Assembly: GCA_047967505.1 (NCBI GenBank)
Contig: CM106538.1
Direction: 5' to 3' (one strand)
Source of the DNA: Dipteris shenzhenensis
Taxonomy: Eukaryota
Length of the DNA: 64,000 nucleotides
In this document: positions 3,470-44,740 of the stretch, one piece after another
Layout: the number at the start of each line of letters is the position of its first letter
Numbering within the stretch: position 1 is the stretch's first letter
Notes under the pieces: model-generated
The model's database searches: none
The model's input: only the letters and a program-made list of their open reading frames with translations
Told to the model about the DNA's origin: nothing
Program-made: the position numbers and the translations under genes

Positions 3470-3873
3470 TGTGACATGAAGTTGGGGGTAATGAAACTTC
3501 ATGCACCTCTTAGCTTCCTGCTCTTTCCAATCTTAATAATAGAGACCCTTATCGCTTGCAAAGAAAGATGAAGAAAATATTTTCATGTAAAGAAAACCAC
3601 AACATATCTTTCTCCTTGCTTCCCTTAGAGGAGAATGAATATGGTAACATCCCAAGTGACGTTGTAGTCCAACATCGGAAGAAGAAAATGATCCGCAGAG
3701 GCCATTATCTCACCAAGCTGGACAGTGTTAAAGAGAAGAGCGATGTGTTGTTGGAAGAAGATATTTCGGCTCCACATGATGTGAACTAATACATATCTAG
3801 GGGGTTGAAGGGGCTGATTTGGCTGGATGGGTAAATTCCGGGAAAACATGGCACCTCCTTCACAGAAGCCTCT
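3470..3873 (+). repeat. Diverged ~400 bp duplicate of 9142-9543 (transposase-like fragment)
   Basis: Both begin TGTGACATGAAGTTGGGGGTAATG. ORFs 3556-3789 and 9228-9461 are near-identical in translation. Confidence 0.92.
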
Positions 3874-4354
3874 AAAAATGGCTCAAAATCATTCTACAAA
3901 TTGCTAGAAAACACAGAGGTCTATAACTTCCACTAGAGAGCTAATATCAAAAATTAAAGTATGTATAGGTATGTGCCTTGAAGTGAGCTTCGTACTGATA
4001 TAAGTTTCATTGAAAATAGATAACCGGTTGAAGAGATATGGACAGTTTATTGAAAGGGGATTAAAACTATCATGAAAATAGACTATCAAACACAGAGACT
4101 CATAACTTTTTACAGTAGTATTTGATTTAAAATCTAATCAAATAGGAACATGCGTCTTAAAGAGAGCTTCACGCTGATATAAGTTTCATCAAAAGGGGGT
4201 CAAACTATCATAAAAACTGCCCTCCACCCATGCTAATTTCGCCTGAGCAAACTACTCCCTCAGGGCTCCATAATTATCAACGATCCAATACCCCTAGAAT
4301 TTGCCTAAAAGAGAGGAAGAATCTTGGATGGTGGCTCGGGAAACGGATGGACCA

Positions 4355-4860
4355 TGTGTGCACAGTGAGCGGCCAAACAAGAACTACTTTAGAGACTTGA
4401 ATAGAGAGAAAAGAACATAGGAATGGAGACTCAAGGAAAATGATAAGAAGAGACTTTCATTGCCATGAGAGTAAGACTCCACTCAAATACACTCAAAATA
4501 CAACAAACACAAGGGAGAAGAAGAGGTTTCATACATACAAGAGGGAGCGGAATCTCCAAGACTACTCATAGAGAGAGAATAAACTAGAGAGAGATGGACT
4601 CAAGAGTCTACATAAGAGAACATCTACATGAGGGAGAGAAGGCTCATGAAAGAGGCTTGAGGAGACTGGACCTATAGTAACATGAGGCCGAATGGTGGAA
4701 GCGATGATGAACAAGGGAGAGGAGGCCTCCTTTTATAGAGATTTTGTCACCCTCCTTCACCCATTTACAATTGCTGCCTGTAGATTCTTTTCCCCATCAA
4801 TCACATAAGGCCGTATGTCACAATCCATGTCCTTTTTGGCTACTCTTGCCATGTGTCCCA
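4355..4860 (-). mobile_element. LTR-like fragment abutting the truncated Gypsy pol
   Basis: Non-coding, with TATAAAAGG on the minus strand near 4730-4737. pol homology stops at about 4860. Confidence 0.4.
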
Positions 4861-6781
4861 TCAAAACTACATAGTGCCATAGCCTTTTGATTAAGCTCCT
4901 TCAAATGAGGACTTCTTGTCTTGTAATGCCCTTGCATTTGCTTTATAATAGGTAGAGAATCTCCTCTTACTTCCAATTCTTTAACTTGACTTTGAAGACA
5001 ACCCTCCAAACCAAGAATCAAAGCATTATACTCAGCTGCATTGTTAGTTGTAATACCTGGAAGCTCTTGTTCTCTTGCCCACATGTCTTGACCTTTAGAA
5101 TTAATCAAGACTATCCCCTTGGCTCCTTGTTGGCATGAAGGACTAAAATCCCCATCAAAATACAAAACAAAAGCTGTTGGTGGTGTATCCCTTTCATCTT
5201 TAATGTTCTCCTTACATTTCTTTTCTTCTCCTAGATCCTCCCGTCTTATGAGCAAATTTGCCATAGTGGACCTAGTGGTATTTTCAATGACAAAAGAGAA
5301 AGAGAACTCTTGAAGCTCTGACAACCATTTTGCAAATCTCCCCCCAGGATTAGGCTTGCGAACTAGATATGCTAATACAAACTGAGAGGTAAGAAAGAAA
5401 AATGGTCGAGGTAATAAATAGGAGCGAAACTTTCTGACTAAAAACACCAAAGAGAGAGCTTGCTGCTCCATTTCTTCATACCTTGTTTCCACCTCTATAA
5501 GCTGTCGGCTAGCATAATAGATGGGTTGCATTCTACCTGCCTGTCCTTTTTGTAGCAATACAGCACCAACTGAATGCAAAGATACACTTGGATTTACATA
5601 AAAGTCTTGAGACCAATCAGGGGGCTTCAATATTGGGCCCTTACTCATGGCCTCCTTAAGTTGCTGAAAAGACTCTTGTTGCTCCACACCCCATTGGAAA
5701 GAAACTCCTTTTCTTGTCAATAAGTTCATGGGATGCACTATCTCTGTGAAATCATCACAAAAGCATTGATAATACTTGCTCTTTCCTAGAATTCTACGAA
5801 CACCAGTGACACTTTTAGGACTTGGCAATGCCATGATTGCTTGAACCTTGTCAGGATCCATTTGCAGGCCTTCTTCAAACACAATATGCCCCAATAAGAC
5901 TACTTTTGTTTGAGCCAAATGACACTTTCTAGGATTTAAACACCCTTTTGCTTCATCAATCCTAGCTAAGGCCATCTTTAACTTCTCCATGTGATCTATG
6001 CACCGAGAATAAATGCAAAAATCATCCAAAAACACCCTTATGAACTTTCCCAAGTAAGGCTTCAACACTTGACTCATGAACCTTTGAAATGTAGCTGGTG
6101 CTTTGGTCAACCCAAAAGGCATCACTCTGTAAGTAAAAACTCCCCAAGGTGTGACAAATGATGTTTTCTTTTGATCTTCCTCCCAAATACGAATTTGAAA
6201 GTACCCAAAATACCCATCACATACAGAATACATCTCATGCCCTACTACTTGGTGTAGTATTTCATCTTGGAATGGCAAAGGAAAATGATCCCTCTTAGTG
6301 CATGCATTCAAAGGATGAAAGTCCACATAGACCCGCCACTTATTTCCTTTCTTTTGCGTGACAACTACAGGAGATATCCATTCTAAATCATCAACAAGAA
6401 AGATGAATCCCACCTCAAGTAGTTGTGCTACCTCTTTCTTTAGTACCTCAACTTGGATCCCCCCAATCACCTTAAGCGTTGCACAACTGGCTTGCTTTGT
6501 GGCTTCAACTCAATCTTGTGCTCCACAAGAGAGACTGGTTGAACCTGTGAATAGCTTGTTGCAAAGAGACATGGAAAGTCATCTAACATATCCAAGTACT
6601 GGAGCTTCTCACTACCTAATAGAGAATCACCAAGAAGCTCTTCATTGCATTGGCATCGTTTAGTGTGCTCCACATCCTCCACATGAAGTGTCTCTATAGG
6701 ATCTTCTTGCACCACCATCTTGTTCCTTCCTGACTCGTCCCGATCAGCACCAAGACAAAGACCAAAGGCCACTCCTTCCAC
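4818..6781 (-). pseudogene. Ty3/Gypsy (Tat-like) pol: RT, RNase H and additional archaeal-type RNase H; integrase missing
   Basis: RT motifs WISPVVV, MPFGL, FLDDF; RNase H PIYYASR; second RNase H YFDG...TNNAAEYNAL...RGDS. Frameshift near 6470. Confidence 0.93.
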
Positions 6782-6987
6782 CTCACCCTCTGAGATGGAC
6801 TCCTCGAAGCTACACCCTGTCTCTTCTTCTTCTTCGGTTAAGTCAGAGCTTAACTCTCTGATGTTGAAGACTCCTCCTTGACAACTTGCTTTTTGTGGCT
6901 TCTGATGTTGTAGTGCACCTTCTTAACATTTTATTGCAAAATCAATTCTCCAGTATCCCACTTTTGAACAACCCTCACCTTGCGTAT

Positions 6988-7458
6988 CTAAGGCCTTTCC
7001 AAAATCAATGGATAGGCATGTGCATCTGGCTTGGTAGGGATCACTTGAAAAGTAGTCAGCACAGAAATTCCACATACATCCACTTCTAGATTCTTCACAA
7101 CTCCCAAGGTCTTAACCCTAGTGTTGTTAGCCAATTTGATGCGATAAGGAAAGGTAGTACTAGAGTATTTTAAATCAGCATCTATCATGGTCTTATCAGT
7201 CATGACATTAATCGATGCACCTCCATCAATGTACACATTAGAAATCACCTGACCATCAATGATCACATCAACCATAGGTACATCATCACCAACATCTATA
7301 TCTACCTTTTGAACAAAAGGAATGGCACTTTTCTTCTTTTTCTTCTTTGACACTCTTGTGCTTGCTAGCTTTCCCCATTCCTTCTGTAGTTTTGGAGACA
7401 AAGCAAGTAATTGACCAAAGGTGATATGAGCTTTCTTTTCTTTAAGGTCGGACAACAA
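6988..7458 (-). pseudogene. Gypsy aspartic protease
   Basis: YIDGGASINVM active-site-like motif and terminal YPLILERP. Confidence 0.85.
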
Positions 7459-7587
7459 GTCATAGCTTCCGATGCCTTGTCCTAAAGGAAATTCTGACTG
7501 GCTAAGTCTCCTTCTAGATGCTCTCTTTTTCTTAATATGGCATTCCTCTTCTTGATGTTCCTGATCTACTTCTTCCTTGCTTTCTTT

Positions 7588-8480
7588 TTATTCTTTTGCT
7601 TTACCACGCCCCCGTTTAGCCATCATTACCTCTCTTTCCTCATCCCCTGAAGAAGCTTTTAACAAGGATACTTGTTTTTCTTCTTTCTTTCTCAATCTAG
7701 GACACTCGAGGTGATAGTGACCTTTTTCATTACATTCATAGCAAGTGACCCCACTCTTATCTAGAGGCCTATCTTCACTCTTTGGTACTCTAGATTGTTG
7801 TGGATTAACTAAATGCAATTTCAAATCAGCAAACTCTGCCATCAATTGGGAGATATTATGATCTAACTCAAAGGACTTTGGTACCTGAGGAGTGTCCATT
7901 ACCTCCACCTTAGAAGTTGAAGCTGTTGAAGACACAAAAGAGGATTTGATCTTTAGAGAAGCTTCTTTCTTGGTCGCAATGCGAAGTGCCTCCACATATG
8001 TTGTTGGATATTTACTCATTACTTTTGAACGAAGACGAGGCTCCAAAGCCATAACAAATTTTCTCATCTTTAAGTGCTCCATCCCTAAGAGACTTTGAGG
8101 GGCCGATGATGCAGATGCCATAGCTCGCAAAGCTGCCCTTTCATACTTTGTCCATAAAGTTTCATATCGGATTGCCAACGAAGAGACCATCTCACCCTCT
8201 CCTTGATGGAACCGGTCCAACTGCAACATCAAAGCATTTGGCGATGCCACTGTCCCAAATCTCTGCTTCATTACTGCCACCACTTGATCCCAGTCTTCCT
8301 TGGTAGAGTCCAACAAGGCCTCATGCCCACTCAAGGCTACACCTTCAAGAAAATCAGGCAAAATCTCTACCCAATCCTTCGTGGACCATCCAGAAAGCTA
8401 GCATCCTTGAACAAAATCCTGAAGATAAGACTCCAGGTCTTCCCCTTGGGTCCCTTGAAACACTAGAATCTTCACCATGA
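7588..8480 (-). pseudogene. Gypsy gag with CCHC zinc knuckle
   Basis: QGEGEMV major-homology-like region and CYECNEKGHYHLEC knuckle. Confidence 0.88.
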
Positions 8481-8552
8481 TCAAACACAAAAAGGAAACA
8501 CCAAGATCCAAATAGTATCCCAAACAAGATCCAAACAAGATCCCACAGAGCC

Positions 8553-9045
8553 TTAGTATACCAAGACCAACTTATTATGCATAATCACTTGTTGAAAACC
8601 CTCCACAATGTGATCCTCAATCTTCAAAAATAAGTGACCACTAGCACCATGAAAACATCGTGTATACATGCATTCAAAAATTACCCTTCTCACAATTGGA
8701 AGTGCACATGATAGCTTCAAGATATTGTACTCTTCATCATTTGCATAGCAAAAGAAGTTGAAAGCATTGAGAATCACCACTCCACTGTTATAGTCAAAAA
8801 CTACCCAAAGACTCAACTCTTCTTCACACCAAGCTGCCAGTGCATGAAATAATCCCCGATCTATCACTGTGCCTGCTGCCAGCATTGTCGATTCACCAAC
8901 ATATTCAAGAGTGCAAACATAAATGATATGATCATGATGACCATGCAAATAGCTTGAGCATCACCTTCACAATCTTCAAGTTCTCTTAAATGGGCTGCAA
9001 TCTCTTCTAACGGAATTCTTCTAGGCATCTTCTTTATCATATGCC
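8553..9045 (-). CDS. Extra ORF of unknown function between PBS and gag (frameshifted near 8950)
   Basis: 131-aa ORF 8553-8948 in gag sense, preceded in another frame by MIKKMPRRIPLEEIAAHLRELEDCEGD. Confidence 0.4.
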
Positions 9046-9118
9046 TATACTAGGCATAACATGCAATCAAGTACACCCGAGACCGTTTAGTAAGGTGGGA
9101 TGAATCCAATACCAAATG

Positions 9119-9136
9119 TACCCGGTGTCTCCACCA
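9119..9136 (-). promoter_or_regulatory. Primer-binding site, probably tRNA-Ala
   Basis: Minus strand reads TGGTGGAGACACCGGGTA; plus strand CCCGGTGTCTCCACCA resembles the tRNA-Ala 3' end. TG follows at 9142. Confidence 0.7.
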
Positions 9137-9141
9137 AAAGA

Positions 9142-10696
9142 TGTGACATGAAGTTGGGGGTAATGAAACTTCACACACCTCTTAGCTTCTTGCTCTTCCC
9201 AATCTTAATAATAGAGACCCTTATCACTTGCAAAGAAAGATGAAGAAAATATTTTCATGCAAAGAAAGCCACAACATATCTTTCTCCTTACTTCCTTTAG
9301 AGGAGAATGAATATGGTAACATCCCAAGTGACATTGTAGTCCAGCATCGGGAGAAGAAAAGAATCCACAGAGGTCATTATCTCACCAAGCTGGTCGGCGC
9401 CAAAGAGAAGAGTGATGCGTTGTTGGAAGAAAATCTTTCGACTCCACATGACATGAAGTAATATATATCTAGGGACTTGAAGGAGCTGATTTGGCTGGAT
9501 GGGTAAATTCTGGTGAAACATGGCACCTTCTTCACGGAAGTCTCTGTGCATGCAAACAAGAGCACCTGCAAAGGGTGGCAAAAAGAATCAAAAGCAATGG
9601 GCCTTTGAACTTGCAGAGATAGATCAAACTAAGGCACCAGATAGGGATGCTCCAGGGAAAGATCCATCAAGGAGCCCAATTCTTGAAATTCCTCTTGAGC
9701 GAGTACACATTTGTGCGCTTCATGCTATTGTGAGAATAATTGAAAAGTTGGTGCATTTATACATCATTGATGCATATAACTTGAAGCCCCAACAAGAGAG
9801 TGAGAGGATGATTGCAAGAATTGAAAGGTTCTTTCAGATATGCGACTACACTCTGGGCAAGTAAAGATTACAAAAGATGAGAAAAGATCTGGAAAAATAG
9901 GCAATGTTCCTTGTAAGCCAAGCTTTGGTCGTGTCAAGGCTTTCTGCAAAGAAGAAGAATGACAAGCTCAAACGTGCTAATGAGTTTGATGTATGGAGAG
10001 AGTTACACAATGCCTATTGTGAACGAGGTGGGAAGGGACAAAAAAGACTGGAAAAGGCACGAGTGTGGTTAGCTCTTGATAGCTTAGTACCTTTACTACT
10101 ACAAAAGAAAAGATTCGAAGAAGATGATGCACAATGTTTCATCAATGCTATGAATGACTTTGGCCGGAATAACGAGATAGCTTGGGGAAAGAATCATTTC
10201 ACACAGTACATGGTAATCTCTAACTTGGACATTGAGATGTGCATATTGAATGGTCCTATATTTACTGATTTGTTTTTCTATTTGGCAGCACATATTATAT
10301 GCTCATGCACCATACATGGCATGGAATTATGGAAGCATCAGAGTGTGGTCCACTTAGGGCATGGAAAGATCGCATTGGCAAGCACATTGTGCACATAATA
10401 GAGTGACCCAACACGAGGGTGGTAGAACTAAGTTAAGCCCAATGGTTCAATTGGTTCAATGGTGGTCCAGGCATATCGAAATAAGAGTAGCTGCAACACT
10501 AGCATTCAAAGAGTCCTTAGTGTCCCATGCAGTGCAAGATGTTAATGCAGAACGTCGAAGAAGAATATACAACTCATCGAATGCAAGACAGAATCATGCA
10601 AGTTGGCATGCAACCCATCATAGACAAGGGTGCATATGGGTGGAGACAGATGAAAATGATGGTGTAGACTCTTCCAATGTGGATTTCCATGCATAA
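9142..10696 (+). pseudogene. RAG1/Transib-like DDE transposase, decayed, with intron 10213-10288
   Basis: YISRDLK (candidate second Asp, ~9474), IPLERVHICALHAIVRI, and spliced FTQYM|HILYAHAPYMAWNYGSIRVWST*GMERSH (HxxxxH plus catalytic Glu at 10364). GT..AG 76-bp intron restores the frame. Several stops and frameshifts; N-terminus missing. Confidence 0.8.
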
Positions 10697-10894
10697 GTTT
10701 CAGAATTTATTTGTAATTTTAATTATGTGATTTGTAGTAAAGCCAACGTATAATGGACGTGAGTTGCAATATAAATGAGAAATTTTGTGTTATGGGATGT
10801 TAATTATAAGTATTTAGCTCAAGGTTGCACTAATTTTACTTTTTAAAGGCTTTTTATTGAAACAAATATTTTTAAAAAATTAAGGTTTTTGTCC

Positions 10895-10903
10895 CTATAT
10901 AAG
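10895..10903 (+). promoter_or_regulatory. Candidate TATA box for the H3-like gene
   Basis: CTATATAAG about 135 bp upstream of ATG 11036, followed by a pyrimidine-rich leader. Confidence 0.4.
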
Positions 10904-11035
10904 AGAATGCACCCTCATTTTCATTTCACTGTTTAAAGAGCTCTCCACTCCCAAACCACCTCCCACTTGCCCCTGAGATTTCCACCCTATCTCTTGCACC
11001 CTTACCCTTTCTCTTGCACACTCTCTCCATCCCCC

Positions 11036-11773
11036 ATGGCCAGGCGCAAGATTAAGGCACCACGGAGACTGGCACAACCAGACCCACCTCCAGACTCAGA
11101 GACAGAGAGTGATAGCCCCCCCCTCTCCCCACGATGGATCCCCGATCAAAGGGAGAAACTGCCAATCCGGAAGCCAGACAGGGAGCAAGAGGGACAGAGG
11201 AAGGCACAAGAAGATCCTCTAATATAGACGGATGACTCAGAGAGCACAAAGGAGAAGCGTGTGGAAGAGAAACAACAAAGGACAGAGTAGAGGACCAAGA
11301 GAAGACAATCAGGGTCCACACCGATGGGGGAGAGGTGCGTGAGCTCCAAGTGCAGGTCAAAGAGGCCCTCAACATCCAAGAAGAGGCCCTCCACATCGAG
11401 GGCAAAGAGGCCCTCCTCCAACGATGCGGTACAGATTCAAGCTAGGGACAGTGGCACCACAGGAGATCAGAAAGTTTCAGAAGTCCATTGATCTGCTCAT
11501 CCCAATGGCCAGCTTCGCAAGGGTGGTATGCGAGGTCATGCAGGGCCTCAACCTTAGCCCAATGTCCCGGTTTTACTGGCGCGGAGTTGTGGAAGCTCCC
11601 TAGCAGAGATGCCTTGCTTGCATTGCAGCATGCATCTGAGGCCTACCTAGTAGACCTCACGAATGACACCTAGCTAGCTGCTATCCCTGGCTGCCATCCA
11701 TAGGAAAAGGGTCACAGTGACCACTGCAGACATGCAATTTATTGAACGTTTTAGGAATCCCAAGGGCACTTAG
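11036..11773 (+). pseudogene. Divergent histone H3-like gene (CENH3-like traits, long N-terminal tail), intronless, disrupted
   Basis: Starts MARRK. From 11427 reads RYRFKLGTVAPQEIRKFQKSIDLLIPMASFARVVCEV, then DALLALQHASEAYLVDLTNDT, then LAAIHRKRVTVTTADMQFIERFR, stop 11771-11773. Frameshifts and stops, including a 13-bp duplication near 11674-11699. Confidence 0.9.
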
Positions 11774-11788
11774 GGATTTTGTATGCTC

Positions 11789-11865
11789 CACCTTGTACTC
11801 TACCTATGAGCATCTATCTTATACTCTGCCTACGGGCATCTACCTTGTACTCTACTTACGGGCAT
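11789..11865. repeat. Three ~26-bp tandem units (CCTTGTACTCTACCTATGAGCATCTA-like)
   Basis: Direct inspection. Confidence 0.7.
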
Positions 11866-12161
11866 TAATATAATAAAATGTCTTTTTTAGAATTGTCTTT
11901 GCATGTGCAATCTTAAATTTATTTTCAATGTATTTGCACTCTATTAATTTACTTACATGCACTCTCAATGTATACAAAAGCAAAATGAAATAATAAACAT
12001 CAAATCTTAATAGAACATGCAAAAGGAAATAATACTCAATTTTACTTAACATAGAAAAGGAAACAATGTTCTGTAAACGGGAAGAGCAAATTATTTGAAA
12101 ATGCTATTCTTTATTTACATTGAGTAGTATCACAAAGATCATCAAAGCTTGAATGCCTAAA

Positions 12162-12349: not shown

Positions 12350-15300
12350 TAATTAGAACAACACGATTGGTAGTTGGATGGGTCCATCTTCACCATCCAA
12401 CTGAGGACCCTGAACTTCATGATGTTTATCTTTCCATCTGGCAATAATTGTCGAGGCAAGGTTGGCCATATTGCCAGAGACTATTTCAAGAAGCAAGCAA
12501 ATCAAAGAGGAAAGGTAAATTAGCATGGTCATTTTGCCTCTTCTAGTCATGTGCATGAGACATCCTCAGGTCAGCTATTTGCTATGATGCATGTGCAGGA
12601 TCATAAGCCTACTGATGGTGGCTTGGATGATATATGGTATATTGATTTAGGAGCATCTAATCACATGACACCACATGGAGAGTGGTTTGATGAGATGACT
12701 CCTGGTGTGCATGGTTATGTTTGCACAAGAGATGATACACAACATGACATTTCACACAAGGGTGTTGTGCCTCTGGTGATGCATGATGGTCAGCAGACCA
12801 AGAATCTGCGTGAAGTGTTGCATGTGCCTTCGATCACCAAGAACTTATTGTCTGTTGGACAAATGGCTGAGCAGAACTTGCAAGTCCAGTTTAATAAGGA
12901 TGGATGCTTCATTGAGGAGTTTGGTAATGGCTGCAAAGTTGATTGCAAAAGGGAAAATGCAAGGAAGAATGTTTACTTTAGATGCAGGCATGCCGGAACT
13001 AAAGGCTGCCATGTTTACCCATGGTATAGGTGTTGTCTCTGATTTGGAAATTTGGCACAAATGCATTGGTCATATTAATATTCAGAAGCTGAAAAATATG
13101 TAGCATAAAGGCATTGTTGTTGGCCTACCAAAGTTTAAGTGTAATGCTTTGGAGCATGTATGTCCTGCATGCCAATTTGGGAAGCAATCCAAGTTGCCAT
13201 TTACTAGGCATATGTGGGAAAGTAATAGACCCTTGCAGTTGATTCACACTGATGTCTGGGGTCCAGCTCAGACTACCTCCATATTATGTCACATTTATTG
13301 ATGATTTCAGCCAGTCTACATGGCTGTATTTTTTGAAACATAAGGATGAGTTCCTACCTACCTTCAAGCATTTCACGCAACATGTTGAAAAGGAGTTTGG
13401 GTCATATATCACATGCTTGAGATCAGATAATGAAGGTGAATATCTGTCAAATGAATTTGATGACTTCTTGGCCTATCATGGGATTAGACGGGAGCTTACA
13501 TGCCCATATAGACCACAGCAGAATGGACTGGCTGAACGTAAGAATGGGGTGATTGGTTCGTCTGGTAGAGCCATGTTGAATGAAAAGAATTTGCCTAATT
13601 ATTATTGGGCAGAAGTACTTGCAACTGCAGTGTATGTGCTGAATCGTACTCCTACTAGTGGCATTCATATGCTCACACCATATGAGAAATTGTATCGACA
13701 GAAGCTTGATGTCAGTAATTTAAAAGTGTTTGGTAGCTTGGCATATGTGCATATACCAAATGAAAAGAGATGGAAGTTGGATCCCAAAGCTGAAAGATGT
13801 GTGTTTATTGGCTATGCACAGAATCGAAAGGGTTACAAATGCTACAACCCATCGACCAAGAAGACTATGGTGAGTCGGGATGTTGTTTTTAATAGCTGGA
13901 ATCTTGGTATGGCAAGCCGAAAGTGGTTGTTCCAAATGATGCATCTGCAGGTCATGCATATGATAAAAATCAGCAAATTAGTACATCCATATTTGGGCCT
14001 ACATCTACTGGTTCTACCACAGTGAATCCTTGGTCTGGCAGGTTACGCAATTCCACTGACACTGCTATGTTAGTGAGAAGGAGAGATAAAGGGAAAGCCA
14101 AGGTTGTCCCTAGGCCATGAAATTGTGGCTATGATCCATCATGTAGTGATAGTTTAGATAGTGAGATGGGTATACCATCTGTGTCTACACTTGGAGTCAA
14201 GGGAAGCAGGTACGTACCTCCTCATGAACGAGGAGATTCAGGCACTCCAGTGAGAAGGTCACAGAGAGTCAGGTATCCTGTTGACAGGTTAACTTATAGT
14301 AGTTATGCTACTCGGCATTATTGCATATATGACAAAAGTTATGGGACATACTGAACCAACTATCTTTGGTGAGGCTATGCAACATGGTCATTGGCAGAAT
14401 GCCATGGATGAGGAGATGGATGCTCTTGCCACTAATTAGACTTGGGATTTGGTGGAGTTGCCTGAAGGCAAGAATCCTATTAGTTGCAAATGGGTCTACA
14501 AAGTAAAATCCAAGTCTGATGGATCAGTGGAAAGGTATAAAGCAAGGCTGGTTGCCAAAGGGTATGCACAGTAATATGGGCTAGATTATGAGGAAACTTT
14601 CAACCCTGTTGCCAAGATGGCAACTATGAGAACTATCATAGCATTGGCTACTGCAAATGGCTAGAAATTGCAGCAAATGGATGTCAAGAATGCTTTCCTA
14701 AATGGTCACTTGTTGGAGGAAGTCTATATGGTTCATCCCAAGGGTTATGTGCACCCTGACTATCCCAACTATGTTTGCAGGTTGAAGAAAGCTCTCTATG
14801 GGCTGAAGCAAGCACCTAGAGCATGAAATGAAAGGATCAGTAGATACCTACAGGAGCTTGGTTTTGTAGTTGGGAAGGCTGATCATTCATTGTTCACAAA
14901 GAAAACAATTGCTAGATATGTTGTGATTGTGATTTATGTTGATGATCTGATTCTGACTGGTAGTGATGATGATGGCATTGCTGAAATTGAGATCAAGCTG
15001 AAAATGGAGTTTGATATGAAGGATCTCGGGGACTTGAAGTTCTTTCTTGGCATAGAGGTGTTGAGAACCCCTAATGGCATTTGGCTTATGCAGAGGCAGT
15101 ATGCCTTGAATATGCTAGAGAGGTTTGGCATGAAGGATTGCAAACCAATGGAGATGATGGCTGATTTTGGAGCTAAGATTGATGACATTACCATGTACAG
15201 GCAGATGGTTGGAAGCTTGATTTATCTGACTATTACTAGGCCTGATTTAATATATGCTGTGGGACTCATTAGTCAGTTTATGCAGAAGCCACGGAAGCCT

Positions 15301-16090
15301 CACTTGGATGCAGTGAGAAGGATTATGCGCTATGTCAAGGTAACATATCAGTATGGACTCTTTTATGAGTATGGAAAGGATATAGAACTGGTTGGATACA
15401 CAGATGCAGATTGGGTAGGATGTGCCTATGACAGGAAATCCACCAGTGGTTATGCATTCAGCCTTGGTAGTGCAGTGGTGAGTTGGAGTAGTAAAAAGCA
15501 ACCCATAGTGGTATTGTCTAGTACAGAAGTAGAGTACAGAGGAGCAGCATTGGCTGCATGTGAGATTTCTTGGCTTCAGAAGCTTTGGCAGGATTTGGGA
15601 CTGCATGTGGAAAAACCAATCAGGCTCTATTGTCATAACATGAGTAGTGTGCAGTTGGCAAGTAATCTGGTTCATCATGCTAAAACTAAGCATATTGAGG
15701 TACACTACCATTTCATTAGAGAGATGGTGTTATCAAAGAAGATTGATCTCATACATGTGAAGACTGAAGATCAAGTTGCAGATATCTTTACCAAGTCATT
15801 GGGTAGAGATAAGTTTACATACTTTAGAGAGCTACTTGGTGTTATGCTCCCTACTTGAGCTTGACGGGGAGTGTTGGGAATCAAGCTCTCTGTTATTGTT
15901 CCTGTTATGTGAGTAGGTGAATAAGGTGAGTCACACTGACTCAACCATAGCTAGTTCTTATCTACTATGTATGGGTGTGACCTTAGTAGTGTTCAATTGT
16001 ATTGTGTGGGGTGAATATGAGCTGATTGTGGAGGAGACTGTTGCTCCTTCCTGGTTGCTTCCTATATCTCTCTTCTTGTTTTTCTTAATA
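12350..16090 (+). mobile_element. Ty1/Copia, 5'-truncated and decayed (gag knuckle remnant, PR, IN, RT, RNase H, PPT, partial 3' LTR from 15872)
   Basis: WYIDLGASNHMT; FIDDFS, LRSDNEGEY, QQNGLAER; IYVDDLI; ADIFTKSL; TTGACGGGGAG then TGTTGG at 15872. Confidence 0.95.
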
Positions 16091-24792: not shown

Positions 24793-25554
24793 TGTTATAT
24801 CAGAATATCATCATCATCATAAGTATTTGTAAGAAAACAATACAACGTTTGCACTCAACAGATAACAGGATCTCGTATGCAAGAGAAAAACGGATAGTAT
24901 GGAGAATCAAAAATTTGATTATTGTAAAACTGATACAATAGATGGCGTTGCCTCCCAGCCGTGCGCTCCTATGAGAGAAGCTTTGATGGCATGCTGGAAA
25001 CAGTAGAGGACGGAGGCTGGATGCTAAGGAATCAGGGTTGTTGTAGCCAGTGATGATGATGGGCTTCACGGGCTTGCTCTTATATAGCCACCAGTCATAG
25101 TCGGTTAGACCCAATTGAGTGACCGACCTAGTCTGCCCAAAACGACCGACTGGGGATCAGTCTCAAAATAGGCCACCGACCACTCGATAGAACAGTGGTG
25201 CAAAATAGAGCAACAAACCTACGGTTACCATTCGGCGCAGAGCCATCCGGGATCATCTGGGGCTCCAATGGGCCTCACAACCCGAGAGTGGGCTACTCCA
25301 GGAAATGCTCCATCTACCCTCAGTGTGGTCAGTCATGGGATGCCTTCCCGCACTTGCATGTAGCCTAGTTGGCAGTGTACCAACTCTATCTGAAGTCTAG
25401 CCATCAGGCCACACATGGCCCCCATCTGGTGTCCAAACTAGGACCTACCAGATAACCGAGCTACTCAAATGCCTTCTCCTCATATGGGGCGCTTACAAGT
25501 AGAGTTAGCTAGTTCCTGCATAGTTACACGAGAGTGGAGCATTGATATCTAACA
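24793..25554 (-). mobile_element. 3' LTR of minus-strand Copia
   Basis: TGTTA...TAACA termini; CCCCCCC (PPT complement) at 25555-25561; homologous to 1-665. Confidence 0.88.
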
Positions 25555-27620
25555 CCCCCCCTCAATGTCCACCTGCAAGTGAACTTAATTTTTCGGCCCA
25601 ATGCCAAGTCGATGAAGATGCCTCTCCAGCAAGTCTCTTCCAAGAGCCTTCGTGAAGGTGTCCGTAGCATTCTCTATAGTCGGACAGTACACCAAGTTGA
25701 CCTCTCCATCCATGATGAGCTCGCGTACAAAGTGATATTGAATCATGTGTTTTGTGCGAGCATGGAACACCAAGTTCTTTGCAATTGCCATGCAACTCTG
25801 ATTGTCACATGATAACTACATAGGCTTGCTTTGCACTGCACCCATGTCCCCTAAAATCCTCCTCAACCATATTGCCTCATAAGAAGCAAAACATGCTGAT
25901 TTGTACTCATCCTCGATAGAAGAAAGAGCAACTGTGGGTTGCTTCTTGCTGACCCATGACACAACTCCAGATCCAAGTGAGAAACAGTAAATTGTCACTG
26001 ATCTCCTGCTATCCACGTCTCCTTCCCAATCCGAGTCACAGAATCCGGTGTTGCCCTTGGTACAGGTGATGCCATAATCAAGTGTTCCTTTGATGTATTT
26101 TAGCACCCGCATCCCTGCCCTCCAATGGTTCTCCAGGGGCTTATTGGAAAACCTGCTTAGTACACCAGTCGCAAAGCTGATGTTCGGCCGCGTGTTGCAC
26201 AAGTAAATCAAACTGCCCACAATCCTTCTGTACTTCGCTTTGTCCACCAGTGGTGATGAATCCTCAATTGAGAGCTTCACGTCAACCTCCATAGGGGTGC
26301 CAACTGTCTTGCACTCAGCCATGCCAAATGCCTTTAGTACTCCATTCAGAAAGGAGGATTTTACATCCATCTGAAACATGGGCAAACTTTCTTGTGCTGT
26401 TAAAGCCAAAACACTGCGAATTGTGGTTAGTTGAGCTGTGGGAGCAAAAGTATCATGATAATCAAAACCATGTACCTGTGCGAATCCTTTTACCATGAGC
26501 CGAGCCTTGTATTTATCCAACGTGCCGTCGGACTTGTACTTGGTCTTGTACACCCACTTGGTTCCGATTACTTTGTGTTGTGGTGGGCGATCCACAAGGT
26601 CCCAAGTGTTGTTCTTCATTATGGAGCCATACTCCAACTGCATAGCCTCCATCCACCTATCATCACCTTGTGCCTCTTCAAGACACTTGGGTTCTTCAGC
26701 ACGGATCACCTCTGTCATCAAAGCGTAGTTGACCAAGTGTTCATGCACCCTTCTTTGCTCCTCTAATCTCTTGGACCGGCGGTGTTTGGATGGTTCCTCC
26801 TCAATGGCTAGAGGTTCTCTGCCGTCCAAAAGCTGCTTTACCCACTTTGAGAATGGCCGTTGCCATTGTGGTTCTGCAAACTCTTCTTCCTCTTCTTTAT
26901 CTTGAATCCTCCCAAGCACCATTGGGGGAGTTCAGTCTGCTGTTGGTGGTTGTATTGGATGGATATCCTGGTCCTGGTTGTCTAGGAAGAAAGCATCCTC
27001 CTCTAATTGATGCGGCTATTCTGAGAAGACCACATCACAACTTACTATTGCCTTCTTGGTAATAGGGTTATAGAAATGGTAACCCTTCGCCTCTTCACTG
27101 TAGCCCAAGAAAATACATTTCCGGCTCTTCGATTCATATTTGGTCCTGTTAGCATCAGGGACATGCACAAAACAGTCACATCCAAAAACTCTGAAATGTG
27201 CAGTTGAAGGTTTCTTACTAGAAAAGGCCTGCAGTGGAGTCATCCCGTTCACAGCCTTCATGTAGCTACCTTCGTGTATCTACGATTCAGAATGTAAACT
27301 GCCATGTTACATGCTTCAACCCAGAAAGTCTTTGGCAAATCTTTCCCTTTCATCATACTCCTGCCCATTTCGCAGATGACACACATCTTGCGCTCTGCTA
27401 CTCCATTTTGCTATGATGTATGTGGCGGGGGTTTCTGCCTCTTGATCCCGTGACTTTTGCAGTAACTTTCGAATTCACTTGATTGAACTCTCCACCTCTG
27501 TCTGATCTCAACTTCTTCACTTTCCTCCCCGTTTCTTTCTCGACCATTACATGCCATTCTTTGAACTTACTAAAAGCCTCATCTTTAGTCTTCAGGACGG
27601 TATATCCATATCCCAAAGCA
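25555..27620 (-). pseudogene. Copia pol remnant (IN, internally deleted RT, RNase H)
   Basis: LRSDRGGEF; KWVYKTK...YKARL; QMDVKSSFLNG joined directly to VLKAFGM (YVDD region absent); FHARTKH...TFTKAL. Confidence 0.92.
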
Positions 27621-34906: not shown

Positions 34907-35043
34907 TCCAGTGTCAAGCTTCCATAGCTTTTCTGAAACCTTCTCCGTAACCTTTCCACCACCTCCATCACCTTCTCGGCCACCTCCTCGAGGATCGTAG
35001 CAATTTTGTATATTTCCTTGCTCGGAGCTCAGCTCAAACTGCC

Positions 35044-36207
35044 ATGTCTTTGCTCAGAAGAAGAGGTGCAGGATCTGCCGTGCACACCCTCTCCCTCCTG
35101 CACGCGCCCCCTTATCAGACTGGCTTCTTCGTTTGTCACCTCTGCTGGGAGAGAGGTAGCGGTCCTCTCTATCATTGTCCCGATTGCCAGTTCGACCTTC
35201 ATACCACCTGTGCCGGCTCTGGAAATCAGCAAACTCACTTTTCTCACTACCAGCACCCCCTGCATCTCAAATCTGTGAATCCTGGCCATACCTGTGATGG
35301 CTGTAAAGAGCCCATCTTCTCGTCTGTCTATCGTTGTAGCCTCTGTGACTTCGACCTATGCACCCTCTGTGTCCGAGCTCCCAGGTTTGTACGCCATCCC
35401 AGCCATCCCCATGTGCTCGTTCTCTCTCTGGCGAGTGAACTCTCGGGTTCCTGTCAATGCGATGGCTGTGGAAGACACGTCTCTGGGATGGTGTATCGGT
35501 GTACCGGTTGCAATTTTGATCTCCACCAGTCTTGTGTGACGCTCCCGCTCAAACCGCTGCATCACAAACACCCAGAGCATCCGCTTACTCTTCATTTCCA
35601 ACGTGAAAGCGGATGGAGCTCCTACAATTGCAACGAGTGTGGACGCGGAGGGACGGGGTGGGTTTACAACTGCTCGATCTGTACGTACAACTTGCATCCC
35701 GGCTGTGCAAAGATTCCACACGAGGTGCCCCGTTCGGCGAGTTTGCAGAAATGGCATGAGCCTCTGGTCTCACCGCGGTGGGATGTCCCGCAAATGTGGT
35801 CTGACCGACCAGAATCGATATATCAAGGAAATGAGCTTGTTCGAACGTCGCCTTATTCGAGGGTTCGGGGTACTAATTCTTACGAGTCACCATACGATTC
35901 GAGCATGCGCGGGCTCGGTCAGGGCACGCAGGTGATCTCGCCGTCCCCTTACGTCTCCTCGTTGCGTGAGACTTCTTCCCTGGGCAGATCACCTTACTCC
36001 TCTTACTTATCCACGCCAGCTTTAACTTACAACAGACCTGCACACTCTCCTTATACGTCGTCACATGATTTCCTGAATGCTAACGATGGTTCTCCTTCAG
36101 CCAAGTTGCAGCAACTGACCCAAATAGCTCCGTCTCTGAATCCCAGGGATGCGGAGAGGATTCTGGACTATCTAGGGGGGTCACATGCATCTAGTGCGTT
36201 GTACTGA
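35044..36207 (+). CDS. Cys/His-rich DC1 (C1-like) domain protein with four domains and an S/P/Y-rich C-terminus, intronless
   Basis: Intact 387-aa ORF with four H-x-L...CxxC...YxCxxCx(F/Y)xL(H/C)xxC units; CpG-rich, consistent with a live gene. Confidence 0.92.
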   Translation: MSLLRRRGAGSAVHTLSLLHAPPYQTGFFVCHLCWERGSGPLYHCPDCQFDLHTTCAGSGNQQTHFSHYQHPLHLKSVNPGHTCDGCKEPIFSSVYRCSLCDFDLCTLCVRAPRFVRHPSHPHVLVLSLASELSGSCQCDGCGRHVSGMVYRCTGCNFDLHQSCVTLPLKPLHHKHPEHPLTLHFQRESGWSSYNCNECGRGGTGWVYNCSICTYNLHPGCAKIPHEVPRSASLQKWHEPLVSPRWDVPQMWSDRPESIYQGNELVRTSPYSRVRGTNSYESPYDSSMRGLGQGTQVISPSPYVSSLRETSSLGRSPYSSYLSTPALTYNRPAHSPYTSSHDFLNANDGSPSAKLQQLTQIAPSLNPRDAERILDYLGGSHASSALY

Positions 36208-39700: not shown

Positions 39701-40255
39701 GCAAAGGGGGGGATTGTTGGGTTAAAGAAGACTCATCCTCATGAGGATAGTATAGTGGTGTGATTAGCCTTGTCTATCGATGTGTCATTCATGCATGTGA
39801 TGATCTATGTAGAAGGAGGAGGAGGTGTGTCGCCTCCATTCTAGAACTCTCCAAGGCAGCAATGAGAGTCGACCTCCATGAATCTAGCGAGGCCATATGA
39901 CTCTTGGATTCTCTACACAGCTAGGGATAGGAGGATTGTGTGCTGGTGATCATGAGGAGAGGCAGCCTTCATCAATTGGTGTGTTAATGCTTTATAAATT
40001 TGAGTGTTGATTTTATGAAAGTTGTAGTAGTGTGTTGTGGGAGCCTTTGTGGCAATCTTGGATGTGTAGTAATGAGCAACAAGCCCAGTAGGGATGCACT
40101 CTAGTAGTAGATGAACTTGAGTGTTTTTGTGTGGAGTTTTGAGTTGATTCTCATATCAGTTCTTTGTCGATTCAATAGATTTTGCACTCATTTCAATTCT
40201 AATCAGATAGCTATTTAAATTGCATGAAACACTAAACTTAGACATAAAGCCAACA
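39701..40255 (+). mobile_element. PPT plus 3' LTR (39715-40255), Sirevirus-like junction
   Basis: GCAAAGGGGGGGAT then TGTTGG...CCAACA inverted termini; TATAAA at ~39993. Confidence 0.7.
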
Positions 40256-42195
40256 GATAAGTCATAGCCAGCATCACTTTTTATTGAAGAGCAGAGTTTG
40301 TGTACCTACCACCATCCAATAAGAAAAACATGATGAGAACCAGCTTAACCTTAGTTGGGAAGACAGTGCGAAGTTGTCCCGATTAAGTATGTGTTTAAAG
40401 GAGAGGTGTTGTAAAAAGGCAAGAAAAATTTGGGGTAAGATAGAGGGAAATTCATAAGGAAATTTTATTTTAAAGTATAAGAAAAGGGGGAGTTGATGGT
40501 GGAAAATTATGCAAAGAAGTTTTAGTAATAAAGAAGGAAGGGAAAAAACGTAATGCTAAATAAGAAATTAACTTTTAGGTTAGTGTAAGCACTAAAGTTT
40601 AGGAAATTAATGTTTGGTTAGTATATGCACTATCTGAAGATTTTGTTTATAGCATAAAGACAATGAAGTGTACTATAATATAGAAGGCTTAAAAAGTAGA
40701 ACGATCAAAGGAAAAATAAAGTTAAAAAAATCATAGTATAAAGACATAGACGGTTGGGCGGGTAAGCCTTAGAGTCATTAATTAGATAGTTTTAGAGGGG
40801 TAAAAAAAAGAGGGGGGGGCAGGTTGGAAAGAATACAGTATTAAGGAATCAATAATAAGGGGAAAGAAATAAATCAAAGTATGAGAGAGATAAGGAGGGA
40901 CTAGAAGTGGTGGTAGAACTAACGATGAAGGGGAGAGAAATAAAGAAAAGTAATAAAGAGGGGGGAGAATTAATCATAAGCAGTATTTGAGAATTAATTG
41001 TAAAAGGTACTTTTGAATCAATGACCAAGAATAGCGAGGCATCGTGATGAATTCGAGGTGATGAAGGTGACGAAAGGGATACAGAGGCTGGGCAATAGAT
41101 GGAGTGGCAAAGAGCAGAAGAGGGCACGTGGTTGTGTGGCAAAGAGTAGAATAGGGCACATGACAGAGTAGGCAGAAGAGAGGGTAGTAGGCGAGGCTAC
41201 GAGTGGACAGCGTAGGGTGAGGGGGATTAAATAGTTGTAGCAAAGGTAGTTGGGGAGGCAAAAGGTCGAGAACACAAGGAGTCAGAGAGGTTCTCGGAGA
41301 CAAAAAGGAGACAGATAGGCGCTGCGAGGGTAGTGGCTCGAGAGGTGCCTTTTATGCTATGTTTTAATGTCTTAAGAAAGACTTCCTGTTATTCATTGAT
41401 GCTCTTTTAAGAGAAACTTTCGGGATTGTAGTTAGGACAAAGGAGAGTAGTTATGGTTTTTAGGGAGCGTAGTTAGGGTAGTAGAGTTTGAACATAGTTA
41501 GGGAGTAAAAAGCGGGTAATTGGGGAAGAAATTGAGGAAAATCGAGGGGAAAATAGAAAAAACAAATAAAAGTAGGAAAATAGGGAAAAATACATTAAAA
41601 AGGGAAAATAAAAAAATAAGGGACAATTAGGAAAATTTTAGGAAATTTTAGGAAAAATAGGGAGAAAAAGGAAATTTTAGGATATTAGGAAAAAATAAAG
41701 AAAAATAGGACAAAATAGGGGAAATGGAAAAAAATAAAAATTAGGAGAGAATTAGGAAAAACTTAAGGGAAGATAGAGAGTTAGGACGAATATGGGGAAG
41801 AGTAGAGACTTAAAGAGTTAGGAAATTTTAGGGAACAGATTAGGGAAAATGCAAGGAACATTAGGGAAAATTAGCGAATTAGGAAAATTAAGGGAGAAAT
41901 TAGAGAAATTAGGGAGAGAGGAAAAAAGGGGGGGTTGAAGTAGAGAGAGGGGATACCTAGAGAGGGGGAGGGGGGCGGAGGGAGGAAATTGAGGGGCTAA
42001 GATAGAGAGAGAGGATAAAAAAAGAGACAGGGGGGAGGAGAGAGGATAACTAGAGAGAGGGAAGATTTGAAGAGAGGGGAAGAATATTAAGGGGTGAAAA
42101 TTTGAAGAGAGGGGAAGAATAGTAAGGGGTGAAATTGGTGAAAGTAGAAGTAGGATGTGGAGGGTCTGAGATAAAGCGTTAAAGGGAAGAAGGTA
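40256..42195. repeat. Purine-skewed low-complexity region starting with a diverged partial copy of the 1.9-kb repeat
   Basis: 40256-40370 (CTACCACCATCCAA...GTTGGGAAGACA) matches ~46020-46125. Confidence 0.6.
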
Positions 42196-42232
42196 TGTGT
42201 GTGTCTGTGTGTCTGTGTGTCTGTGTGTCTAT

Positions 42233-42281
<49 letters not shown>

Positions 42282-42327
42282 ATACATCTAATAATGTCTC
42301 ATGGCTAAGTGCATTGTTTGTGTCCCT

Positions 42328-42375
<48 letters not shown>

Positions 42376-42719
42376 ATTGCTATCTATGTGTGCATGTGTG
42401 TGTGAGTGTGCATTTGTGCATGCGTGTGCATGTGCATGTGCATGTGCATGTGCATGTGCGTGTGCGTGTGAGTGTGCATTTGCGCATGCATGTACATGTG
42501 TGTGTTCATGCATGTGCGTGTGGGCATGGGCATGTGCATGTACATGTGCATGCACGCACGCGCGTGTGTGTGTGTGTGCATGCATGCATCCATGTGTGTA
42601 GGTGTGCATGTGCGTGTGCATGTGCATGTGTGTGTGCGTGCATGGGTGCTTGCACAGGTGCATGTGTGCGGGTGCATGCATGTGTGCATGTGCATGTGCA
42701 TACATGCATGCATGCATGA

Positions 42720-42760
<41 letters not shown>
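42196..42760. repeat. Compound microsatellite: (TGTGTC)n, two (CT)n, long degenerate (TGTGCA)/(TG)n tract
   Basis: Direct inspection. Overlapping ORFs are repeat artefacts. Confidence 0.95.
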
Positions 42761-42761
<1 letters not shown>

Positions 42762-42764
42762 CAC

Positions 42765-44740
42765 CCCTTTGCATAGTGAAAAGACAAAAGAGCAAAGCTA
42801 CACAATGAAATAGGACTAACTGCATTAACAGAGAAGTTTGTACAAGTCGGTGAATCCCTGCTTATAACGGAAACGCGACAGTGGGCATTTTTGTAGAAAT
42901 GACTTTGTGGAAACTATATGGAGTTTGAGCTTGGATAAGTCCTGGCAAGCGTCACTTAAATTATTGAAGAGGGGAGTCTGCCTACCTGCCACCATCCAAC
43001 AAGCAAAAAAGTGGTTGGGAAGACAGGTGTCATCAACACCCCTCCCTTGTTATCGGAGTCACAATAAAAATCGATGCTTTGGCCACACACTTATCAAGCT
43101 TAAGCAGTGAAGGTAATGAACCTTTGTAGAAACAAAGGGGTTTTTTTAAATATAGATTAATAGAAGTAATGGGGTGGAAGAAGGTTAGCACGATCAATCT
43201 AAAGGTTAAGGAGTAAAAATAATGAACCTTTGTAGTGAAAAAAAAAGGGGGGGGGATTAATACAAATTGATAGAAGTAATGGGGGGAGAAAGGGTTTAGT
43301 TGAAAGGAATTTAATGAATAGGGGTGGTTTGAAGAGGTTAAGAAAGGATGGATTAAAGGAAAAGGAAGGTGGGAAGGGTGGAAGTATACTTTAGAAAACA
43401 TTACAAATTAAAATTTAGAGAGGATAACTAGGGAAAGGGTAGGATAAGTAAGGAAACAAAAAAGAGAAAAGAGAAGTGAGGAGAAAGCAGAAAAACTTGG
43501 GTGAAAATGTATAGATTAGGGATGGGATGAAAAGGGATACGTAGCTATTAGGGAACGATTACCTAAAAAATTAAAACAAATAAAGCTAGGAGTATATAAG
43601 TTTACTTATATAAGGAGAATGCACCAAATAGAGGGGGACATTAGAGCCTAAAAGGGGGATATTAGAAGGAGAATGAACTAGTTTAGAGGGGGAAATCAGA
43701 TCCTATAGAGAGGGTGAAATTAGACCCTATAAGGAGAATGAACTAGTTTAGAGGGGGAAATTAGAGCCTATAGAGCAAACGGGTTTAAAGAAGTAGAAGG
43801 ATTAAAGTAGAAGGGAAAATTTTGGAAGGGAGAGGGGGTTAAAGACAAATTAATACGGGGGGGGGGGATAACGAGAGGACTTAAGAGGGGGGTGGGGTAA
43901 ATGATAATTTGAGATAAATAAAAGATAAAGGAGAAGAGGGGGGGGGCATCAAACAAGACCAGTAAGTCCAATTCCACGACTGGTTGTCAAGCCGCAGGCA
44001 TTTACCTCTATCCAAAGCCATACAAAGGAAAGCATGAAGGGCGCAGTTACCTGCGACCATGCAGTCGAGTGAATGGAGGTTGAAGCATGGTAGCGAGGCC
44101 AATAGCACAACAGTCGAGGTCAGAGGTCCCAACGGGGGAGCAACAGTGCAATTAATTAGTAGTCTTTTGGGCAAGCAGCAGCGTGAACAGCGTGGAAGGG
44201 TATGTAGGTCCTGGTGCATGGAGTTGTAGGTTCTAGAGCATGGAATAGAGCCAAAAGGATAGGGGTTTAAGGGACTGTAGGTCTAGAAAGCTTGCACAGG
44301 CAGGCGGAAGACCACTATGCATGGTGTAGCAAGGGGCAGTGAGCAGTGAAGGGTAGTAGTGGACGAGTAAACTAGGAAGCGGGGGGGTTGGGAGTGAGTG
44401 GGAGGGAATGGTTAGAGGTGAAGTACTTAATAGGCAAAGAAGTCATGCAATCGGGGAAGGGAGAGGTCGCAGATGTAAGGAGTAGGGAGAATTAGAGAGA
44501 CTAGGAAGCGAGGTAGTCCAGGGGGGGGGGGCGGGGGGGTTTAGGAGTAGTTTGGGGAGGTTAACGTAGTTGTGTTAGGGAGACAAGTTAGGTTAGGAGG
44601 TTTAATTAAAAAGGAGGAAAAAATCAAAGGGAAAGATTAGGCATAAATTATGAATAAATTGAAAATTTGTGAAAGAAGAGGAAAAGGTAGGGGCAAGAGT
44701 TTAATGAGGGAGAAGCTAACAAGACATTAAGAATAAAAAC
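42765..44740. repeat. ~1.9-kb repeat, copy A
   Basis: Colinear with 45850-47700 from CCTTTGCATAGTGAAAAGAC to AAGACATTAAG. Confidence 0.92.

Follow-up and report, generated by a model that had tools for sequence, protein, structure and literature searches.

A probable pseudogene of an unnamed CENH3-like histone H3 family in transposon-rich plant DNA

The H3-like locus at 11036-11773 (+) lies in a window of 64,000 nucleotides (64 kb), the whole stretch of Dipteris shenzhenensis DNA that was analysed. It is very probably a pseudogene, dead and silenced, of a gene from a CENH3-like H3 variant family that is lineage-specific and carries no public name. The window copy yields no working protein, its frame being broken at least six times. 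It appears to have been functional once, with the lesions arising after function was lost.

Histone fold, tail and flanks of the locus

Downstream of a putative start codon (ATG at 11036), the locus contains an H3-type histone fold at 11412-11770 (+), divided into three colinear pieces, one in each frame of the plus strand (stop-to-stop ORFs). The first piece, at 11412-11600 (+) in frame 0 (PPPTMRYRFKLGTVAPQEIRKFQKSIDLLIPMASFARVVCEVMQGLNLSPMSRFYWRGVVEAP), begins with PPP and proceeds through αN and α1 (LLIPMASFARVVCEVM) into the first part of loop 1 (GLNLSPMSRFYWRGVVEAP); it is 47-58% identical to members of the unnamed family by tblastn. The second, at 11602-11670 (+) in frame 1 (SRDALLALQHASEAYLVDLTNDT), comprises the end of loop 1 and α2 and is located by Pfam, tblastn and the tree alignment. 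The third, at 11687-11773 (+) in frame 2 (LAAIHRKRVTVTTADMQFIERFRNPKGT), carries the end of α2, loop 2, α3 and the C-terminus, closing with the stop TAG at 11771-11773. Piece 1 matches the Pfam Histone profile (PF00125) with an E-value of 1.1e-8 (35.7 bits, against a cut-off of 26.4 bits). Pieces 2 and 3 match it weakly, below the cut-off (E 0.069 and 0.0036, profile positions 76-97 and 100-120), and the matched pieces keep the order of the profile, which is that of αN, α1, α2 and α3. A tblastn search of the whole 64-kb window with P0159, a member of the unnamed family, likewise recovers three colinear pieces (E 2e-21). Matches among solved structures are also of the H3 class. No second H3-like locus is detected in the 64-kb window, either by tblastn with family proteins or by repeat search.

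CENH3 proteins are distinguished from H3 by replacement of the Gln in α1, a change from Phe to Trp at the start of α2, and replacement of the Thr in EDT. In the window copy, as in the unnamed family, the α1 Gln of H3 has become Ala. The Thr is kept in NDT, whereas the family has Gly there. The Trp at the start of α2 is present in the family; its position is gone from the window copy through a deletion at 11601. Loop 1 exceeds the H3 length even after this deletion, and homology to the nearest family defines it as the frame 0 segment GLNLSPMSRFYWRGVVEAP, which reaches 11600.

An earlier, sequence-only reading had placed the fold in three frames, and ORF reading, Pfam Histone and tblastn all bear this out. 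The α1 motif it reported, LLIPMASFAR, is found in the sequence, the canonical-type Thr in NDT is seen in the window copy, and the claimed lack of introns agrees with a fold (11412-11770) that shows no intron-sized gap. Its extended loop 1 is right in being longer than that of H3, but the string given for it, TLAQCPGFTGAELWKL, is frame 1 taken too far upstream.

The N-terminal motif at 11036-11137 (+), an ATG plus 34 codons in frame 2 (MARRKIKAPRRLAQPDPPPDSETESDSPPLSPRW), is common to the unnamed family and aligns to M.R.K..AKRLP...P..DSERTESD..PP..RRW of P0009, P0014 and P0156. This family-like N-terminus covers the first 34 codons only, up to ..PRW, from where the family goes directly into αN. 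The window copy differs in continuing into an extra tail at 11138-11411 (+), about 274 nt long and purine-rich, which is missing from the ~50-aa tails of the family and has stops in every frame, those of the ATG frame being TAG at 11225-11227 and 11288-11290. A tandem repeat of 21-24 nt (2.8 copies, 11353-11416) starts within the extra tail and overruns its end by 5 nt. Internal duplication of the extra tail is not significant, the best local alignment being a 10-nt identity whose score was reached in 103 of 500 shuffles, and antisense ORFs over the tail give no meaningful Pfam match at E up to 10.

RYRF (11421) lies 128 codons beyond the ATG (11036), a stretch that spans more than one reading frame; the RGP-rich string of the tail belongs to frame 0 and not to that of the ATG. 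The ~130-codon tail described previously therefore holds as a distance but not as a single frame, interrupted as it is by TAG at 11225 and 11288 and exceeding the family tail by about 274 nt. As a long repetitive feature, the tail is not intact. The family member P0028 has a tail with short tandem repeats, so the extra tail of the window copy may be either a lineage-specific tail expansion or post-mortem junk.

Upstream of the ATG by about 140 nt, a TATA-like box (CTATATAAG, 10895-10903, +) is recognised by consensus resemblance only, and a C/T-rich leader (10930-11035, +) extends between the box and the ATG. The 3' flank (11790-11877, +) contains a 26-nt tandem repeat (2.9 copies, 11790-11865) and then AATAAA at 11872-11877, about 100 nt past the stop of the locus.

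Transposons are abundant in the plant DNA of the surrounding window. What looks like a complete Gypsy-type LTR retrotransposon occupies 3470-9545 (-), with 404-bp LTRs that are 90% identical and with RT, two RNase H-like, protease and gag regions. A decayed gene fragment at 9546-10700 (+) lies directly 5' of the H3-like locus on the same strand; its ORFs are split by a GT...AG intron-like stretch (~10213-10287) and an in-frame TAG. The fragment has no Pfam match at E up to 10, and its ORF at 9901-10398 has no usable protein-atlas match. On the 3' side, a Copia-type element at 12440-15858 (+) is 5'-truncated within the gag zinc knuckle (CpG observed/expected 0.15 over 12440-16000); no LTR pair was found for it. 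LTR-like repeats in minus orientation stand at 1-665 and 24886-25554 (84% identical, the left copy cut by the window edge), the right copy being followed by a polypurine-like run and then Copia RT at 25816-26931 (-). Further Copia and LINE-like fragments are present. The sole undecayed gene-like feature noticed in the window is a 418-aa ORF at 34951-36207 (+) that combines a ZZ zinc finger with four C1_2 (DC1) domains (GC 54%, CpG observed/expected 0.79) and whose nearest atlas clusters are mostly from Streptophyta. GC skew is very strong over 40000-48000 (0.40-0.55). In this region a block of about 2 kb occurs twice (42760-44738 and 45845-47699, 88% identical, the copies lying some 3 kb from each other), and a 12/18-nt periodic array occupies 42365-42774.

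The unnamed family among H3-type proteins

Relatives of the window copy were found by exhaustive phmmer, which returned 410 proteins at E <= 0.001, only 2 of them below 1e-10. A word-indexed protein search with the 86-aa piece gave no homolog at near or longer lengths; this index requires shared 5-mers. P0009 and P0014 were singled out because the N-terminus after the ATG at 11036 also matches them. With P0014 as query, a tight family emerges, P0153-P0164. Six relatives, counted with P0014 and P0028, are full-length (155-210 aa), and cluster look-ups expand the P0157-type group to 38 full-length sequences of 166-170 aa. At least 44 intact full-length relatives exist. Forms that are partial or extended number about 11, and P0028 has a longer tail. 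The P0157-type group carries 48 singleton changes, which affect tail (18 in 52 positions) and fold (30 in 104 positions) alike.

Mean column identity within the family is 77% (13 rows). Its consensus reads M[GV]R.K.CAKRLP.KTRP.PP...DS.RT.SD...P..PPPP..KRRWRPGTVALREIR.YQK..DLLIP.APFAR.VRE.M in the N-terminal part, ...GRFY........TRW in loop 1, which exceeds that of H3 by about 12 residues, and SAQALLAIQ.AAE.YLV..M.DG.CAAIHAKRVTLT.KD.RLVRR[IF]RNNSDAF..DPNMP in the C-terminal part. Five members, P0276, P0289, P0293, P0297 and P0301 (four 90% clusters), are ORFs of 85-86 aa with the same Met start right after α1. None of the family members looked up has an informative name, P0301 being labelled merely 'histone H3/H4', and three family motifs have no occurrence in searchable papers. 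A metagenome scan with the family alignment revealed no close member: out of 573 confirmed loci, the 80 best are generic H3 genes at 38-54% identity. An AlphaFold2 model of P0159 (13 sequences; mean pLDDT 45, pTM 0.24) is too poor for use. On at least one family contig (proteins P0295, P0296, P0299 and P0300), the H3-like gene is closely preceded by an ORF that continues into it, as seen in P0296. The upstream ORF (P0295/P0296) may be akin to an ABC-transporter membrane segment, and it has no counterpart in the window.

The window copy shares with the family the N-terminus (M.R.K..A.RL...P..DSE.TESD), the proline run before αN, LLIP.A.FARVV.EVM in α1 (or, more loosely, LLIP.A.FAR.V.EVM), a long loop 1 with RFY, ALLA[IL]Q..[AS]E.YLV in α2, AAIH.KRVT.T, and R[FI]RN at the C-terminus. 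It differs in its identity of 55-57%, its broken frame, the extra tail and the loss of TRW from loop 1. It ends in RFRNPKGT and a stop, without the family's NNSDAF..DPNMP extension, and its αN reads RYRFKLGTVAP where the family has RRWRPGTVAL. As judged from these sequences, the missing extension and the αN difference fit a diverged or decayed relative, not a crown member. At 55-57% identity to its nearest relatives, the window copy could descend from a separate paralog and not from the family proper.

Trees place the window copy with the family. A quick 80-row tree groups the window row with the family, P0015/P0115 and P0036 (SH-aLRT 92). In a careful tree of 48 rows, from which the partial P0009 was left out, the window copy and 11 family rows form a clade (99/83), with the window copy sister to the family crown (88/91). 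A second careful tree of 39 rows, with P0028 and P0011 added, gives a 13-row clade at 96/79, just below the star threshold, in which four deep lineages form a polytomy: the window copy, P0028 and two subgroups. The end branch of the window copy is 1.33 in the 48-row tree, against 0.02-0.15 for family rows, and 1.33-1.35 against 0.02-0.43 over both careful trees. Canonical H3 (2 rows) and angiosperm CENH3-like proteins (4 rows) fall outside the window-family clade in both, on a weak backbone. Family membership of the window copy is indicated by this clade support together with the N-terminus, the RFY loop and R[FI]RN. The divergent H3 with CENH3-type marks proposed earlier is accordingly upheld, both careful trees speaking against a decayed canonical H3: the histone-fold phylogeny, run on public rows, yields neither a canonical H3 nor a CENH3-like grouping, and related public sequences exist. 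The further suggestion of a copy of CENH3 is not supported for the conventional plant type, as the window copy stands apart from the four angiosperm CENH3-like rows in the trees and is unlike published CENH3 by eye.

A second unnamed H3-like group consists of P0011, P0015, P0044 and P0115 (208-337 aa), which have long N-terminal extensions rich in Glu, Arg and Gln and a proline run. LLIPKA.FARVV occurs in P0011, with variants in P0015, P0044 and P0115. This group is sister to the window-plus-family clade in the 48-row tree (89/84), not in the 39-row tree.

Published conifer, fern and lycophyte CENH3 were compared by eye, through short translated stretches of the codon alignments in Table S3 of PMC11687628. 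In CENH3 of Pinaceae, Cupressaceae and Podocarpaceae, LLIP[AS]LPFAR is followed by a short loop 1 and then [NS]RWTAEAL, and in Cupressaceae and Podocarpaceae the sequence goes on with VALQEAAE (PMC11687628). Pteridaceae CENH3 has FLIHPLPF[AT]RLV...SRWTAEAL, and Lycopodiophyta CENH3 has ...LLIRPLPFVRLV...TRWTAEALIAIQEA (PMC11687628). The row P0049 from the streptophyte alga Chlorokybus is of the same type as conventional CENH3. Since conventional CENH3 spans algae to seed plants, a family-bearing plant probably has a conventional CENH3 too.

Plant CENH3 (the angiosperm rows P0127, P0039, P0054 and P0145 and the sequences of PMC11687628) shares with the window copy the Pro of LLIP, the α1 change from Gln to Ala and a loop 1 longer than that of H3; also shared are a tail that is not alignable with H3 and, as a feature of the unnamed family, RW at the start of α2. 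In conventional CENH3, loop 1 exceeds the H3 length by only a few residues and leads into RWTAEAL[VI]A[LI]QEA, whereas in the unnamed family it is longer by about 12 residues. Unlike conventional CENH3, the family has an N-tail and a C-terminal extension conserved across its subgroups; it lies outside the CENH3 rows in the trees, where the backbone is weak, and the window copy keeps Thr in NDT. The shared α1 Pro and Ala and the RW are CENH3 marks, and the unnamed family that bears them may have its origin in CENH3. On these sequence comparisons, it is apparently not ordinary plant CENH3.

Canonical H3.1/H3.3 has in common with the window copy the fold, the helix order and the motifs GTVA, EIR..QKS and AIH.KRVT. 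The window copy is set apart from it by a non-H3-like tail, the change from LLIRKLPFQR to LLIPMASFAR, the extended loop 1, another C-terminus and a separate position in the trees. Heterogeneous plant 'H3-like' genes and H3 pseudogenes, with introns present or absent, are placed near H3.1/H3.3 in the available part of Cui et al. 2015 (PMC4357034), which also reports that no CenH3 was found in Picea abies. Like the window copy, members of this class are diverged from H3 and changed at its signature positions; that part of the paper describes nothing resembling the unnamed family.

Lesions and loss of function

The path fixed by homology contains four internal stops, all TAG (11225, 11288, 11601 and 11671), and with the terminal stop included 5 of 5 are TAG. 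One frame change falls within 11138-11411, before the fold. In loop 1, a frameshifting deletion at 11601 takes the path from frame 0 to frame 1 and creates the TAG at 11601-11603 (+); about 3-4 loop residues are lost, including the family-invariant Trp, and the family's TRW is gone. The in-frame TAG at 11671-11673 (+) occupies a column that is Q in P0159 and L in P0014. It is followed by a 13-nt tandem duplication at 11674-11699 (+; CTAGCTGCTATCC / CTGGCTGCCATCC, 11/13 identical), which moves the path from frame 1 to frame 2. The use of TAG as a sense codon was rejected, because the frameshifts would remain.

The all-TAG pattern would fit C-to-T transitions at CAG or TGG sites that had been methylated. 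CpG observed/expected is 0.36 at the locus and 0.15-0.34 in the neighbouring transposons and pseudogene, against 0.79 in the intact DC1 ORF; the GC content of the locus is 54%, against 41% for the window. The window copy keeps the residue in 43 of 68 family-invariant columns (25 changed), and in 39 of 62 variable columns its residue also occurs in a family member. In a neutral simulation, a residue retention of 63-65% corresponds to about 0.2 substitutions per site, with 1.5 new fold stops expected and 1 seen. By retention and stop counts, the data fit a long neutral decay and, equally, a long phase as a functional divergent paralog followed by recent death, between which the lesion counts do not discriminate.

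The ancestor of the window copy would have had an H3-type fold altered in the manner of CENH3, with Pro and Ala in α1 and a greatly lengthened loop 1, together with a tail unlike that of H3 and a C-terminus of the RFRN type. Once function was lost, the copy would have acquired TAG stops of the C-to-T type, one deletion, one 13-nt duplication and the extra tail. The CpGs of the dead copy would have been lost as in the surrounding transposons. An assembly error is a conceivable objection to the pseudogene reading, but stops by substitution and a 13-nt duplication are atypical of read errors.

Origin of the window copy and significance of the family

The window copy would have arisen either as a retrocopy or, carrying a promoter of its own, as a relic or DNA-level duplicate, and the two are not separable here. 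A processed pseudogene, made by LINE activity from a parent with introns (the host's CENH3 or its member of the unnamed family) and either dead from the outset or decayed later, is rather unlikely. The entire coding region is colinear and free of intron-sized gaps, and this intronless state can be set against the histone domain of Arabidopsis CENH3 and homologs, which corresponds to five conserved exons in the available part of PMC12780178. The AATAAA about 100 nt 3' of the stop also agrees with such an origin, as might, more weakly, the 85-86 aa ORFs of the five members noted above, which may point to an intron, or to an unspliced form, after α1. Against it, no poly(A) run follows the AATAAA at 11872-11877 and no target-site duplication is seen, the best flanking direct repeat matching at 12 of 14 nt in AT-rich DNA, away from plausible ends. 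The TATA-like box and the C/T-rich leader 5' of the ATG are not expected on an mRNA copy. Many full-length family ORFs are unbroken on contigs of 4-7 kb, which fits an intronless gene if these contigs are genomic. As for CENH3 as the parent, the window sequence is not of the conventional CENH3 type.

Amplification with a mobile element, by which the window copy would be a decayed member of a multicopy family of TE-borne or TE-captured H3 variants, is improbable. The locus does sit between the Gypsy LTR (end 9545) and the 5'-truncated Copia (from ~12440), beside the decayed fragment 9546-10700, and the many slightly different family variants, several on multi-kb contigs, look as a repeated element could. 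These variants are equally explicable as orthologs from many species, however, and the locus is a single copy in 64 kb, flanked by no TIRs, LTRs or long repeats but by chance matches of 9-11 nt only. The repeat pair 1-665 / 24886-25554 apparently does not bracket the locus as a single element, since its right copy is followed by the polypurine-like run and Copia RT.

A live gene, whose breaks are assembly errors or are spliced out, is barely credible. The promoter-like box, a start codon in good context, the polyadenylation signal and the GC-rich body are what such a gene would show, but four internal TAG arising by substitution, the 13-nt duplication and a multi-residue deletion taking the family-invariant Trp are not, and CpG is depleted to the level of transposable elements. 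The sole readable GT...AG pair at the loop-1 break would excise some 33 nt, less than is expected of plant introns.

Equally remote is neutral decay of a canonical H3.1/H3.3 or of the conventional host CENH3: the search of solved structures puts canonical H3 (E ~1e-6) near the best match, an 'H3 variant' (1.2e-7), with fission-yeast Cnp1 at 5e-6, but both careful trees set the window copy with the unnamed family and apart from the two canonical H3 and four angiosperm CENH3-like rows, it has the family-specific N-terminus, RFY loop and RFRN end, and published conifer, fern and lycophyte CENH3, as translated by eye, have a short loop 1 before RWTAEAL.

The pseudogene of the unnamed family, as the window copy is best read, is itself an ordinary dead gene that changes nothing, and its value is that of a pointer to the family, which may be new and is seemingly undescribed. 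We tentatively suggest that the intact relatives and the dead window gene might represent an undescribed, conserved H3 variant lineage derived from CENH3 and maintained beside conventional CENH3 in plants with large, poorly annotated genomes, a lineage that may be multicopy or mobile-element-borne. The long loop 1, the conserved tail and the C-terminal extension are the possible marks of this proposed lineage. In conclusion, if the family coexists with ordinary CENH3 in giant-genome plants, it would constitute a second centromere-type or otherwise specialised nucleosome component, and dead family copies such as this one could, if this is true, date the duplication.
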